Assembly: GCA_963768425.1 (NCBI GenBank) | Contig: CAVYHV010000009.1 | Location: 192,001-256,000, forward strand | Direction: 5' to 3' | Origin: Candidatus Bathyarchaeota archaeon | GTDB lineage: Archaea > Thermoproteota > Bathyarchaeia > Bathyarchaeales > Bathycorpusculaceae | DNA: 64,000 nt | Shown here: piece by piece, positions 11,126 to 15,629 of the stretch | Position numbering within the stretch: the first letter of the stretch is position 1 | Layout: the number at the start of each line of letters is the position of its first letter | Position numbers and translations under genes: made by a program | The notes under the pieces: model-generated | Databases searched by the model: none | Seen by the model: the letters and a program-made list of their open reading frames with translations, nothing else | What the model was told of the DNA's origin: nothing

Positions 11126-11317
11126 ATAAAGAATTACTAAGTGAGAATGGAATATAAATCAGCTTTTTTAGGGATTTGTTATTTTTAAAGGACGGATTTA
11201 TAACGGGCTGCTCTAATATTCTTTTAATTATTCAAGTTTGAACGGCGATCTTTGGTGTTTTTCTCAAATACTCTAAAGACCGCAGGCAATTTGAGGTTCC
11301 TCTTATTTTTGTTATAA

Positions 11318-11719
11318 ATGCAAGTTTATCAGATTTTTGCCAACAAAATTGTCGTTTTACTAACCTCAAAGCAAGGAAATCGTTTACGGGCGGCTCAGCG
11401 CCGAGTTCTCATCTATGCTGATGATCATTCAAGTGTTTCGCCTTCAAACGTGCCGGTTCCTTACGGGGGAATCCAACAATTTAACATGACGGCGGACTCT
11501 GGCTACTACATCAGTGGCGTCTACATAGATGGAGTTGACCACGGCAACTTAATGACGTACAACTTCACTAACATCCAAGATAACCATACAATCTCAGTGA
11601 CCTCAGCAACGTTTGCACCAACAAACACGCTCACACCAACTCAAACCAACCCGTGCCCTACAGAAACAATACTAATAACCGCCACAGCCATAGTTGCATT
11701 GATTGCCGCGTTCGCTTAA
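11318..11719 (+). pseudogene. C-terminal fragment of a surface protein with divergent InlB B-repeat-like domain and TM anchor
   Basis: V.YGG.Q.F..TADSGYYISGVYIDG...YNFTNI..NHTI, same domain type as in the sedolisin at about 33.4 kb; no signal peptide. Confidence 0.55.
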
Positions 11720-11949
11720 CCTCTTACGAAATGATTCGCACTTTACCAACAAATTGGGCACAATAGAAAACAAACGCTCAGACCCGGTCGCGTATGTTCT
11801 CAAGACTTAGTCTATCATTTGAACACCCCAAAAAGACGACTTTTAACCGCGCGAGTCTGATGACCTTCGAGACTCTTTTTGAAAGTTGTTATTACGCGCA
11901 CTTGTGCCAAATGAAACATAAATAGTATTATTTGTTACATAAAAGTCCC

Positions 11950-11961
11950 AATATTTAAAAG
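11950..11961 (+). promoter_or_regulatory. TATA box for candidate ncRNA
   Basis: TTTAAAA at 11954-11960, about 24 nt before the terminal stem at 11984. Confidence 0.5.
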
Positions 11962-11983
11962 TCCACGTCTATAATACCATCGT

Positions 11984-12213
11984 TGCAGGTTGAGGAGCAC
12001 GCTTTAATCGCGATGCATTAAGGCAAGGAGCGTGTCGATTAAAACAGCGAAAAATCGATGCGCGACAAAGACTTTGCCTCGATGGGCTGGACATTGCATT
12101 GTTGCATTGAGGCTATGAGCAGCGTGGTTAAAACGGTGAAAGACCATGCTGCGACCAAGACATCGCCTCAATGGACCGCGAACATCAAATTTAAGGCTCA
12201 GACTCAACCTGCA
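11984..12213 (+). ncRNA. Structured ncRNA with two tandem pseudoknotted arms (family not recognised)
   Basis: Perfect 11-bp terminal stem; two 69-nt arms with covarying stems at 89-nt period; G-U pairs favour + strand; TATA upstream and pyrimidine run downstream. Confidence 0.75.
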
Positions 12214-12396
12214 CTTCTTCTCAAAAAACGAGCATCATAATTCTTTTTTAGTTCAGAAAAATCTTGTTTCCCTTTCTAGACGTTAAGCAAACTAATTTTT
12301 AAAGCGTTATTGCTGGCATGTGTTTAAGTGTTAATTAGCCGCGGTTCAGCGCCTATCCTGCTTAGGGATAAAATAAAGAAAAATAGCTAAAGCAAC

Positions 12397-12567
12397 TTAC
12401 TGTATCTTTACTTTCTTTACCCTGTATAGGTTGGATTTGCCGCAATTTGATGCTTTTTTATAAATAGTTTTTGCTTTTTCCAAATTGTCTAACACTATTA
12501 CGCTTCTGGTTGATCTGGCTCCTTTAAATTTAGGGTCCTTTAGTTTTTGGTAAAACTGTTTTCTCAT
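12397..12567 (-). CDS. Small basic protein (56 aa)
   Basis: MRKQFYQKLKDPKFKGARSTRSVIVLD..., preceded by GAGGAG; below ORF-track cutoff. Confidence 0.4.
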   Translation of the reverse strand: MRKQFYQKLKDPKFKGARSTRSVIVLDNLEKAKTIYKKASNCGKSNLYRVKKVKIQ

Positions 12568-12715
12568 CTCCTCTTATAACTAGTTATTCTCCTCACAGCT
12601 TCAATGAAGGGTACGCACCTATTCGATCACTAAGAGGGTCACTATGGCGACGCATCCAAGCTCCCTTCAATCATGCTGACGTCCACTGTTAACGATAATT
12701 CGCTAGGCAGATTAC

Positions 12716-13237
12716 TTATTTTTCTTCTTTTTCCTCCTGTTTACCCAAATCTTTTGAATTAATCAAATCGCTAACCTCCTTGTCGCTGTAGCCTCTTGGA
12801 AGCCGGAAAAAAAGACGTGCCATTCTGCTTTAAATCCGAAAGAAACTCTTCCCTATCTTTCTCAGACCAGGTTTGCGGACATGCGCCAAACACTCCGATA
12901 GGTCATCTTGAAAATTGTAGAAATGCAACCTAAAGAAGTACTCAACAATGTCGTGGGTTCCGTCGCATCCCAACACCATGGGAACAACAAAACAGTAGAG
13001 CTCAGTTATCCGCCGGAGCATAACTTCCAAATTCTTAAAAATCAGATCAGCGTTTTCAACCAGAAGCTCTTCCGAACCAGTCTGCCGATATTTTTCTTCT
13101 ATTTCATCAACTTTAGCAAAAAGCAGCTTCTCTGCTTCAGAGAAAGAATTAAAATCAATCTTTATCCCAGGGTTAATTGGATCAGCTAATTGTTTAGTCA
13201 AGTTGTTCACTCTATTGTCTAGTTGCCAGGGTTTCAT
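12716..13237 (-). CDS. Hypothetical helical protein, frameshifted
   Basis: ORF 12830-13237 continues in another frame to a stop at 12716; coupled to the upstream gene. Confidence 0.6.
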
Positions 13238-13634
13238 CGTACAAATACTCCCTTAGCAGCCTTTTGCTCCAAAGCTCTGAGCCGATTCACAAGATCAGGT
13301 AAAACTAATGTTTCAAACATCAAAGAATTCACCTTTATCATCATGTTCAACGCACCTAACTGAGCCAACGGGTTAGATGAAGAGAGCACACGCAGACTGG
13401 CCTGCCGATAGATCTGCTCGTAGCGATTCACTATTTTCAGCACCACATCTTCAGGTTTGATGACGCTCTGAAGAATCAGCTGCCAGCTTGCGCGAGTCTC
13501 AAAATCATTATAGATCGTACGTTCTGCACACCGTATTTTTGACTTAGCTGCTTAACTATTTCAGCTTGAGTTAAGCCTAAGCCTTCAAGCTTTAGCAGCT
13601 CCAAACGCCTACTCACAACATCCGACTCACTCAT
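13234..13634 (-). CDS. HTH protein, frameshifted; mobile-element-like
   Basis: RRLELLKL..LGLTQAEIVKQLSQKYG...RTIYND helix-turn-helix joined to ORF 13234-13446. Confidence 0.65.
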
Positions 13635-13789
13635 ACCCAAAACCACACTCCAACGCAGATGCACCCAGACATCGCCAGACACCTTTGATGAGCGAACTTC
13701 ACTTTTTTCGTCGTCAGTTTGTTCATTTTCCTGTGTCAAGTCCTTAAATACCACATGCAGTTACGTTAAGAAAATATTCAAGCTCTACC

Positions 13790-13835
13790 TGTCAAAGTTG
13801 ACAAACCAACATACAATTTACTGCCAACTTTGACA
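13790..13835. promoter_or_regulatory. Inverted pair of palindromic operators between divergent HTH genes
   Basis: TGTCAAAGTTGACA (13790-13803) and TGCCAACTTTGACA (13822-13835) are reverse complements at 13/14. Confidence 0.5.
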
Positions 13836-14276
13836 CATGGGCGGTGGCATAATGGAAAAAACACCCGGAAGACCCATAGAATCAAGCCCTTTAGAAAAAC
13901 ACAACTAAGCTCGGACGCAAAAATCATAGCAGCCCTCATAAAACTGCAGCCTCAAACCAGAGAAGAAATCTGCGAAAAAACAGAAATCAGCGAACGAACC
14001 TTCTACAGAAACATCGCGGTACTGGAAAAACAGCAAATAATCAAATGCCAAGATCGCCTGTACTCTCTTTGGGATTTTGATTTCTTAGAAAAGAAAATAG
14101 AGGATGCATTATCTAAACTGATAAGGGAGTGCGCAATGATCTATCCTGATTATGTAGTTAACGAAGTTGGGAAACCTTGGCCTGAAATTCAAGCCGCAAC
14201 CTACAAAATCGTCAAGAAACTCGGATTAACCATAACCAAGGCGGGAAACCAAACAGTTTTTCTCAAAATCAACTAA
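13830..14276 (+). CDS. Winged-HTH DNA-binding protein
   Basis: TREEICEKTEISERTFYRNIAVLEKQQII; true start possibly ATG 13852 with a frameshift. Confidence 0.7.
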   Translation: MTHGRWHNGKNTRKTHRIKPFRKTQLSSDAKIIAALIKLQPQTREEICEKTEISERTFYRNIAVLEKQQIIKCQDRLYSLWDFDFLEKKIEDALSKLIRECAMIYPDYVVNEVGKPWPEIQAATYKIVKKLGLTITKAGNQTVFLKIN

Positions 14277-14525: not shown

Positions 14526-15629
14526 ATGCCGAGGAGCAATGTGATGGTGAAGATTTGCATTATTCTGGGAACTAGACCCGAAATAGTAAAGTTTTCACCC
14601 ATCATACGCGAATGCGAGCGGCTGCATTTAGACTATTTTATTTTGCATACTGGGCAGCATTACAGCTATAATATGGATAGGGTCTTTTTTGAGCAGCTTG
14701 AATTGCCCGACGCAAAATACAACCTTGACGTAGGCTCAGGCACGCATGGAAAACAAACGGGCAAAATGCTCGCGGGCATAGAAGAGATTTTGCTGCGGGA
14801 ATCTCCCGACGTGGTATTGGTTGAGGGTGACACAAACACGGTGCTAGCAGGCGCATTAGCCGCTGTGAAACTCGGCATCAAAGTTGGGCATGTGGAGGCT
14901 GGGCTACGCAGTTATGATCGGCGAATGCCTGAGGAAACCAACCGTGTTTTGGCTGACCACTGCGCGGACTACTTGTTTGCGCCCACACCCAAATCAAAAG
15001 AAATCCTGCTTCATGAGGGCATAGCAGAAAACCAAATTTTCATGGTGGGCAACACAATCGTGGATGCGGTGCACCAGAACTTGAAGATAGCGAAGTCTAA
15101 AACTCAAATTCTCAGACCAGTTGTGTCTTGATGAGGGCAAGTTTATGTTGGCTACGTCGCACAGGCAAGAGAACGTGGACGACAAAAACCGATTCGCAGG
15201 CATCATCAAGGGATTGCAGCTGGTTCAAAGCGAGTTTGGGGTTCCGTTGGTTTATCCTATTCATCCCCGTGCACAGAAAACAGCTTGATCTGTTTGGTAT
15301 AGATACGGGTGGGTTAACGTTGGTTGAGCCTCTGGATTATTTGGCGTTTCTTGATGCTTGAAAGCAAAGCAAAACTCGTCTTAACCGACTCAGGCGGGGT
15401 GCAAGAAGAAACCTGCATCCTCGGTGTGCCCTGCGTTACCTTGAGAGATAATACGGAGAGACCTGAAACCCTAGACGTTGGCTCAAACATCCTAGCTGGA
15501 ACTGACCCCGACAAAATCCTTGAAGCAGCAAAAGTTAGCTGTGCCCAAAAGAAAACGTGGACCAATCCGTTCGGTGACGGCAAAACCGGCTCAAAAATAA
15601 TAAATATTCTAAGGGACCAACTCAAATAG
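14526..15629 (+). CDS. wecB: UDP-N-acetylglucosamine 2-epimerase (non-hydrolysing), frameshifted
   Basis: GTRPEIVK, HTGQHY, EGDTNT, HVEAGLRS, PEETNR, TDSGGVQEE, TERPE, NPFGDG. Confidence 0.95.

Follow-up and report, generated by a model that had tools for sequence, protein, structure and literature searches.

A Bathyarchaeia gene for a structured RNA with pseudoknotted arms, processed at a bulge-helix-bulge site and probably circular

Positions 11984 to 12213 on the forward strand of a 64,000-nucleotide stretch of Bathyarchaeia DNA (the window, by which we mean that whole stretch) are read here as an independent gene for a structured circular RNA that is produced at a bulge-helix-bulge (BHB) site, a reading to which we assign a probability of about 0.72; more tentatively, the RNA would act in trans as a multivalent platform. 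An initial annotation, made from the sequence alone, had described the interval as an unrecognised non-coding RNA in which a terminal stem encloses two equal arms, and inspection of the sequence finds every feature that it listed where it had placed it. The outer stem and the adjoining internal loop form a canonical hBHBh' processing site, which is well supported. Contigs assembled from public RNA libraries begin, stop and rejoin at the two cut positions predicted from that site, and the product is a 201-nt circular or circularly permuted RNA, the biogenesis of which is also well supported. The parts of the gene are as follows; P3 and P4 were not listed in the initial annotation and were found in the homologue alignment.

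11984-11994/12203-12213, + strand: outer stem (the terminal stem of the initial annotation), 11 bp, enclosing the remaining structure
11995-11998 (GAGC)/12196-12199 (GCTC), + strand: central BHB helix H, 4 bp, paired in 24 of 24 homologues
11999-12001, + strand: BHB bulge 1, A-C-G, with the probable 5' cut at 12000/12001; RNA contigs begin or rejoin at 12001
12200-12202, + strand: BHB bulge 2, A-G-A, with the probable 3' cut at 12201/12202; RNA contigs stop or rejoin after ...CAG (12201)
12001-12201, + strand: mature RNA seen in RNA contigs, a 201-nt circle or circularly permuted form that holds P2, P3 with arm A, and P4 with arm B
12001-12007/12191-12197, + strand: P2, capped after ligation by the tetraloop UCAG (12198-12201), which contains the junction in the circular fold
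12010-12015/12092-12097, + strand: P3, closing arm A
12016-12084, + strand: arm A, 69 nt (outer stem 12016-28/12072-84, lone A 12029, inner stem 12030-40/12053-63, loop 12041-52, 8-nt bulge 12064-71)
12045-12048 (loop CAGC)/12086-12089 (GCTG), + strand: pseudoknot A, with its complementary 4 nt directly 3' of arm A
about 12100-12103/12181-12184, or in an alternative register 12099-104/12183-88, + strand: P4, closing arm B
12105-12173, + strand: arm B, 69 nt (outer stem 12105-17/12161-73, lone A 12118, inner stem 12119-29/12142-52, loop 12130-41, 8-nt bulge 12153-60)
12134-12137 (loop CGGT)/12175-12178 (ACCG), + strand: pseudoknot B, with its complementary 4 nt directly 3' of arm B

The hBHBh' site is composed of the 11-bp outer helix, the 4-bp helix GAGC/GCTC, two 3-nt bulges on opposite strands and an inner helix that starts from 12002/12195. 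A BHB is defined as a 4-bp helix with two 3-nt bulges, placed between two helices and cut inside the bulges (PMC7714728, excerpted text). The site is kept in all rows of alignment A1, which comprises 24 full-length two-arm homologues aligned with MAFFT. Helix H is fully paired in all 24 (its first pair is GC in 18, GU in 4 and AU in 2), bulge 1 is A-N-G throughout, and bulge 2 is AGA in 23 rows and TGA in the remaining one. A strict script recovers hBHBh' in 91 of 111 assessable loci (2 of the 91 are unrelated motifs, and another 5 loci are at contig ends). If the outer helix is relaxed to allow at most 2 mismatches over its first 9 pairs, 14 more loci with the same core are recovered. The precursor fold constrained to contain the BHB lies at most 3.2 kcal/mol from the minimum free energy (MFE), and in the circular MFE fold P2 remains closed, capped by the UCAG tetraloop that bears the ligation junction. 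The archaeal splicing endonuclease cleaves between the second and third bulge nucleotides, and the cuts deduced here would both fall at that position. The terminal stem of the initial annotation exists and covaries, with 91.7% of cells paired and both-side changes at 8 of 11 pairs in A1. It does not belong to the mature RNA, since it is the outer helix of the BHB and is covered by no RNA contig. A K-turn reading of the loop beside this stem was dropped given that the GAGC/GCTC helix and the RNA junction identify the loop as a BHB.

Assembled contigs of four public runs were mapped on positions 11700-12500; other sequencing runs contained only small shares of the sequence words, and no statement on habitat is based on them. 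Two of the runs (X18 and X20) are sediment metatranscriptomes and a third (X13) is a library labelled metatranscriptomic but flagged 'RNA? probably DNA'; three studies are represented. Contigs confined to 12001-12201 number 583, 1769 and 6871 in X18, X20 and X13, respectively, with summed word depths of 10^5 to 5x10^6 over that interval, and no contig of these runs covers 11984-12000 or 12202-12213. The only DNA contig (run X1) spans just the upstream flank, 11701-11918. Contigs rejoin ...AAGGCTYAG, ending at 12201, to GCTTTAA, starting at 12001, which is the predicted BHB junction. Back-joints lead from 12184, 12185 or 12198 to 12001, and the letters inserted at them (for example CCTTAAGGCTTAG, AATTAAGGCTCAG and TAG) terminate in ...AAGGCTTAG, ...CAG or TAG and correspond to the remainder of the 3' side up to ...CAG/TAG. 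Loose contig ends carry ...TTAAGGCTTAG before 12001 and GCTTTAAT... behind 12201. Because position 12000 is C and position 12202 is A, the sole possible junction is G12201-G12001. Judged from the contig word depths, the ring RNA may be present at very high levels in sediment RNA samples. The same contigs run continuously across both arms, which lends no support to the self-cleaving ribozyme that the initial annotation had entertained.

The window's genome encodes RtcB (a PF01139 match on contig C8) and two EndA paralogues (PF01974 matches on C10 and C28, both above the cut-off). Two paralogues fit a heteromeric TACK-type enzyme; in TACK archaea an (alpha-beta)2 endonuclease has a broad substrate range and tolerates relaxed BHBs (PMC7714728, excerpted text). 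In the proposed pathway, the ends of the primary transcript would fold into hBHBh' and the outer stem would be discarded, segment 12001-12201 would be excised, and its 3' end would be joined to its 5' end; these steps are strongly supported. Cutting would be performed by the tRNA-splicing endonuclease and joining by RtcB. An alternative of low probability is that the circle is a mere intermediate and that the functional form is a circularly permuted linear RNA opened elsewhere, as in some archaeal rRNAs and permuted tRNAs. Contigs cannot tell a ring from such a form, and circular pre-rRNA intermediates are textbook BHB products (PMC7714728, excerpted text). However, the contig data contain no site at which many molecules start or end, though contigs cannot show ends, and a junction within a conserved tetraloop on a conserved helix suits a closed form.

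The junction was also sought in genomic DNA. Among 401 genomes of the window's Bathyarchaeia order, 7 contain a 15-nt junction motif, at 8 places in all. No arm match (E <= 0.01) lies near the motif at the 5 of these 8 places that were fetched, two places inspected resemble coding sequence, and the motif is absent from all 188 RNA loci collected earlier. At the places and loci covered, the junction is not DNA-encoded beside arms. A stricter pattern of junction plus arm matched 9 metagenome contigs (JGI), with arm sequence on both sides of the junction in 2 of the 9. In L197 and L202, the 3' part of arm B, the junction and arm A stand at the contig end and are followed by unrelated sequence; these contigs may be assemblies of RNA or of DNA.

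The structure of the RNA is fixed by comparison among homologues. The + strand folds with an MFE of -90.4 kcal/mol (z -4.9; 0 of 200 shuffles equally good), and the - strand fold has a z of -3.0. In A1, 88.4% of cells are paired compared with 31.6-39.1% in a control with slid pairing partners, and both-side changes occur at 48 of 84 pairs, where shuffles average 28.8 and none of 500 reaches as high. In alignment A2, which comprises 55 single arms, pairing holds in 90.8% of cells with both-side changes at 23 of 28 pairs. Arm outer stems are paired in 84.6-86.2% and inner stems in 93.4-96.6% of cells across the two alignments. The pseudoknots had been proposed from a compensated difference between two arms only, and that proposal is borne out. 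The helix from loop to 3' acceptor is 98.6% paired over the 55 arms of A2, with covariation at 3 of 4 pairs (AU:31/GC:23 and CG:37/UA:12 at two positions). In A1, pseudoknot A is 100% paired across the 24 arm-A rows and pseudoknot B is 95.7% paired with both-side changes at 3 of 4 pairs. The initial picture of two equal, kinked, pseudoknot-locked arms is backed by covariation in both sets, the 24 full-length homologues and the 55 single arms. Among the closing helices in A1, P3 is 75-94% paired with both-side changes at 3/4 plus 1/2 pairs and has compensated variants. P4 is 84.4% paired with both-side changes at 3 of 4 pairs (compensated variants include GCGTT/AACGC and TGCTGAA/TTCAGCA). P2 retains 6 of 7 pairs in 24/24 rows and is nearly invariant, hence without covariation.

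Homologues that broke the pairings or conserved a reading frame would have spoken against an RNA gene. The pairings are kept at the level just given, while 1-2-base indels and ring lengths that are mostly not multiples of three argue against coding. The window's own ring, at 201 nt, is a multiple of three, and an opposite-strand open reading frame (ORF) of 67 aa lies at 12004-12207; this looks coincidental given the ring lengths of relatives. A cross-arm MFE topology, in which the 5' outer strand of arm A pairs with the 3' outer strand of arm B, is ruled out because homologues with dissimilar outer stems in the two arms can pair only within each arm.

Each arm has a 13-bp outer stem and an 11-bp inner stem that ends in a 12-nt loop; between the two stems a single A faces an 8-nt bulge. 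The two arms are spaced 89 nt apart. The ring bears one to three copies of a module of ~90 nt, a 24-bp hairpin with a conserved 1-nt versus 8-nt (RNYNAARA) hinge. Since the pseudoknot acceptor lies 1-2 bases past the base of this hairpin, contact between it and the loop requires a fold-back at the hinge. The 11-bp inner stem would then lie alongside the 13-bp outer stem, and the apical loop would form 4 bp with the bulge immediately 3' of the hairpin. The distinct pseudoknot sequences of the two arms (CAGC/GCTG and CGGT/ACCG) suggest that each arm folds independently. Relatives carry further variants (CGGC/GCCG and CGAC/GTCG), and distinct pseudoknots would prevent cross-pairing of neighbouring arms.

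The hinge was also considered as a K-turn, a reading that was rejected. The pair adjoining the invariant G-C closing pair covaries in register with a single A opposite the bulge, so that covariation fixes the register as 1 nt versus 8 nt. The lone A then leaves no partner from which another sheared G-A pair could form. K-turn-dependent pseudoknots of the SAM-I, lysine and c-di-GMP-II riboswitches, and the P4-P6 hinge of group I introns, are fold-back helices with a distal tertiary contact. The arm has in common with them an asymmetric internal loop that bends a long hairpin so that the apical loop reaches a receptor near the base. It differs in that its hinge is not a K-turn, its receptor contact is a 4-bp Watson-Crick pseudoknot, and no Rfam model matches it. 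H/ACA and C/D guide RNAs have a K-turn or K-loop with tandem sheared G-A pairs, and H/ACA RNAs have a two-sided pseudouridylation pocket with the ACA box directly 3' of the stem. A guide RNA of either class was considered, H/ACA on the basis of one to three hairpins with 'ACA' after the arms, and was rejected: the hinge is not a K-turn and the 'ACAT' in question is the 3' strand of the covarying P3 and P4.

Unpaired purines at the hinge (GA), within the bulge (AA-A), in the A-rich loop flanks and before the acceptor (GG) are invariant in the arms of both phyla in which the module occurs, Thermoproteota and Halobacteriota, and this purine-rich core is likely to be a recognition surface, judging from its conservation. 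Each folded arm would offer the core to a single partner molecule, most likely a protein, and the RNA would scaffold or sequester that partner. A protein sponge, one of the functions listed in the initial annotation, is in this form the best guess. Taken by itself, the proposal that an exonuclease-resistant ring acts in trans as a multivalent scaffold or decoy platform is tentative, with a likelihood somewhat short of even. Its main rival, which we consider unlikely, is a ring that acts as a trans-acting array of ligand-binding aptamers, that is, a sensor or buffer for a metabolite or ion. The arm is riboswitch-like in being a compact pseudoknotted fold with invariant unpaired purines clustered at junctions, its one to three tandem copies recall tandem riboswitches, and its core is retained across two phyla that have few lineage-specific proteins in common. 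A 216-aa protein encoded beside the RNA in many Bathyarchaeia was, moreover, not found in the Methanomicrobiales genomes searched. However, the RNA has no expression platform, is excised from its flanks, is followed by no downstream gene in 30 of 117 loci and has no riboswitch match in Rfam, and natural aptamers that lack a target in cis are rare. Tandem-aptamer riboswitches (glycine, nadA/NAD+-I) and sponge RNAs (CsrB/RsmZ, 6S, Y RNA) likewise consist of repeated independent binding modules in variable copy number. In contrast to these, the present RNA does not lie in a 5' untranslated region (UTR), is circular and archaeal, and has no known ligand or protein.

The RNA has relatives within the window's order. 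The window's own assembly (G000) contains three RNA loci, two two-armed and one three-armed, with 7 arms in total according to R1, a covariance model of one arm unit that scores arm A of the window at 92.2 bits and arm B at 87.6 bits. BLASTN finds relatives in 21 of 41 related genomes. The search of archaeal genomes with a covariance model that the initial annotation had suggested was carried out with R1, which finds the family in 74 of 151 sampled genomes of the order and in none of 136 sampled genomes of the same phylum outside it. By family, arm-positive genomes number 33/34, 4/4, 19/35, 13/35, 2/25 and 2/3, with none in six small families, and single other genomes hold up to 6 arm matches. 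Predicted rings measure 106-109 nt with one arm, 192-208 nt with two and 289 nt with three. Scans with degenerate arm patterns yielded 82 stretches for testing, of which R1 confirms 47, five of them in metagenome-assembled genomes (MAGs) of Methanoregulaceae. Pattern matches in Microcoleus, other bacteria and one Asgard record were not confirmed by the covariance model, and R1 likewise did not confirm two matches on viral contigs. A complete two-arm RNA with BHB occurs on contigs of two bacteria-labelled MAGs, L089 (Limnocylindrales) and L110 (Pirellulales), which are most likely mis-binned archaeal contigs. Loci L015 and L028 (genome G001, contigs C9 and C3) are identical, flanks included, over the 313 nt inspected, which could represent duplication or assembly redundancy.

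Multiplicity of this kind, with three loci in the window's genome and up to 6 arm matches elsewhere, would also be expected of an intron-like by-product whose ligated flanks are the functional part, or of a selfish or mobile element (viroid-like, or similar to short interspersed nuclear elements). The patchy spread within the order and the occurrence in two phyla point the same way, and we nevertheless regard this explanation as improbable. The flanks keep their pairing but not their sequence, whereas high conservation marks the excised segment, which alone is found in RNA. Ligase synteny (see below) is stable across families; no reverse transcriptase, transposase or ribozyme lies nearby; no arm-flanked junction was found in genomic DNA; and the two viral-contig matches fail with the model. 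A viroid-like or rolling-circle replicon was rejected on similar grounds: the RNA is encoded in the chromosomal DNA of 74/151 order genomes with promoter and synteny, and the Rfam scans contain no ribozyme matches.

Beyond Thermoproteota, arms occur in 23 of 121 sampled genomes of Methanomicrobiales (Halobacteriota), usually as one locus with about three arms; in six of these 23 carriers the arm match lies on contig 1 (C1). The 42 Methanomicrobiales arms have the same architecture, with 91.2% of cells paired and a pseudoknot that is 100% paired in an alignment fitted to the model. They are set in a scaffold of their own (L083:1157-1446, L123:3327-3617 on the - strand, and L203-L217), with a conserved long closing stem that starts ...TGCCTCAG.GGGGA and small hairpins of GAAC-AAAT-GTTC type between the arms. 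For this scaffold neither the folds nor the script output show an evident canonical BHB, and Rfam gives no match at E <= 0.1 in four Methanomicrobiales loci. In several Methanoregulaceae loci the arm array is followed, at 150-300 nt, by another conserved block (...CCATGGATTGGAACGTTCAGTCGGTGA.TTAGTTGGACACTAATACACCTG...) that looks non-coding. It is found in L203 at about 1810-1920 and also in L206, L209, L211 and L214, and L083, which holds it as well, has no Rfam match at E <= 0.1.

The gene setting in Bathyarchaeia supports the view that the RNA is an independent gene with its own promoter, the promoter function being deduced from the sequence. Three features of the window bear on this:

11945-11961, + strand: archaeal-type promoter candidate, a BRE/TATA-like box (BRE, transcription factor B recognition element) with ATATTTAAAA at 11951-60, 24-33 nt upstream of the precursor stem
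12214-12222, + strand: CTTCTTCTC, directly after the outer stem
12241-12249, + strand: oligo-T run TTCTTTTTT, a candidate archaeal terminator of the precursor

The A/T-rich box at 11951-60 confirms the TATA-like element noted at first, and homologous loci have a GTCRCAAA-TTTATA-like block at the same upstream distance from the outer helix. An ATP-dependent DNA ligase gene faces the RNA in 30 of 117 non-duplicate loci, the two converging at their 3' ends with a median of 55 nt between them; several families and both one- and two-arm forms are represented among these loci. The conserved upstream block and the convergent ligase neighbour uphold the initial description as a stand-alone structured non-coding RNA. 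In 29 loci the RNA is divergent from a gene for the 216-aa protein mentioned above. The window's genus has other neighbours: the window itself contains glycosyltransferases, a helix-turn-helix protein and small ORFs without families, and the next downstream ORFs lie on the opposite strand.

This gene order bears on a further explanation, in which the RNA would serve a neighbouring gene, either as a tandem riboswitch that regulates it in cis or as a type III antitoxin-like repeat RNA. The RNA resembles both classes in its tandem pseudoknotted repeats, and a co-directional DUF523/DUF1722 gene follows in some Methanoregulaceae loci. However, no gene is consistently downstream, neighbours vary among the three loci of the window's genome and among genera, and no toxin-like family occurs in the flanking ORFs. 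For Bathyarchaeia the explanation is largely refuted by gene order, and overall it is very improbable. Two suggestions of the initial annotation fall with it. A cis-acting aptamer is contradicted by the convergent ligase in 30/117 loci and by the absence of the flanks from RNA contigs. An antitoxin RNA finds no support, since no toxin-like neighbour is conserved and the flanking ORFs of the window have no toxin family in Pfam or NCBIfam.

The 216-aa protein is specific to Bathyarchaeia and has a PD-(D/E)xK-like core with an N-terminal helical hairpin (for example L034:746-1396, - strand). It has no Pfam or NCBIfam family and no sequence match in PDB. Its AF2 model (pLDDT 88) gives a best Foldseek E of 0.011 and a best VIA Z of 8.5, the latter to XisH, along with other PD-(D/E)xK-like proteins. 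The copy in the window's genome (C17:116926-117553) is interrupted by one in-frame TGA, and the gene is not adjacent to the RNA in the window's genus. The protein occurs in 70 of 74 RNA-positive genomes of the order, an association confounded by kinship, and as a partner of the RNA it is a lead only.

Several points weigh against reading 11984-12213 as the gene of a circular trans-acting RNA. The inner helix h' is the weak part of the BHB: it is 76.7% paired, with an invariant U-U mismatch, and about half of the homologues have no more than 3 bp of it. The RNA evidence consists of contigs from metagenomic libraries that derive from relatives (85-99% alike), and strand, true ends, covalent closure and relative abundance are not readable from contigs. 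Run X13 is labelled 'probably DNA', and a ring re-opened elsewhere (a permuted linear RNA) or a concatemer would give the same contigs. The module may not depend on circularity, given the Methanomicrobiales scaffold, which lacks an evident BHB. As for a partner, the one conserved neighbour is the 216-aa PD-(D/E)xK-like protein, but 19 of 77 RNA-negative genomes of the order have it too, and a search of 5 Methanomicrobiales arm carriers, run without a positive control, found it in none.

The scan against Rfam that the initial annotation had suggested returned no family match in the window. Rfam 15 gives 0 matches at the gathering threshold in the 64 kb, and at E <= 10 around the element only chance-level matches, the best of which (E 0.16) lies upstream of the RNA. 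A variant RNase P or signal recognition particle (SRP) RNA was excluded, with canonical RNaseP_arch (191 bits, C15) and Archaea_SRP (146.5 bits, C6) present elsewhere in the window's genome. The literature consulted contains no description of the RNA, including two 2026 preprints on non-coding RNA mining with genome language models and the excerpted text of PMC12918454, which treats circular rRNAs and covers Bathyarchaeia; supplementary files lie outside this coverage and may list it.

Circles produced at BHB sites are already known, and what is new is a dedicated gene for an abundant, elaborately folded, modular ring. Known archaeal BHB circles include excised tRNA introns, circular pre-16S/23S rRNA and the HVO_1309 5'-UTR circle of Haloferax volcanii, with which the present RNA shares the signal, cuts in the bulges, joined ends and encoded EndA and RtcB (PMC7714728, excerpted text). 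It differs in that the BHB flanks neither an intron nor rRNA and is the outermost element of a dedicated small gene with the ring as its only conserved product, and in that this ring has an elaborate conserved fold without an Rfam match. Metazoan tRNA intronic circular RNAs (tricRNAs) are likewise stable, abundant non-coding circles made by tRNA splicing machinery (PMC4536317, excerpted text). They are by-products of tRNA genes, whereas here there is no tRNA host and the body of the ring is under strong structural selection.

Bathyarchaeia are widespread and mostly uncultured in sediments, peat and soils, and their RNA biology is little known; Methanomicrobiales share these anoxic sediment, peat and soil habitats. 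We lean slightly towards an undescribed class of dedicated archaeal genes whose sole product would be a highly abundant, BHB-made ring of one to three recognition modules. The presence of the module in both Bathyarchaeia (Thermoproteota) and Methanomicrobiales (Halobacteriota) suggests that its RNA-based function is ancient or was exchanged horizontally; sensing or sequestering of a common cellular factor would be an example. If this is true, archaea use tRNA-splicing machinery to make stable functional circles, beyond intron removal and rRNA maturation. The arm would represent a new RNA fold, in which a 24-bp hairpin doubles back on itself and is held there by a 4-bp pseudoknot, and for which the covariation is sufficient to build a structural model. 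Any cultured strain among the Methanomicrobiales carriers would make the function directly testable, and a natural, compact BHB cassette that gives an abundant ring is a possible design for circular-RNA expression.

Three minor observations concern the surroundings of the gene. In one genus subgroup (L017, L019, L028, L029, L030 and others), a conserved block ...AAGTGGAA.AAAAA... and then a small hairpin (ACGGAAAAACCGT) follow 10-50 nt after the outer helix; the block may be a terminator or a second element. The window ORF at 14526-15131 (201 aa) may be truncated or split, since its match to the 347-position UDP-GlcNAc 2-epimerase profile is limited to positions 8-174. Around the RNA gene (window 11250-14000), G+C climbs from about 0.33-0.35 to 0.40-0.47.

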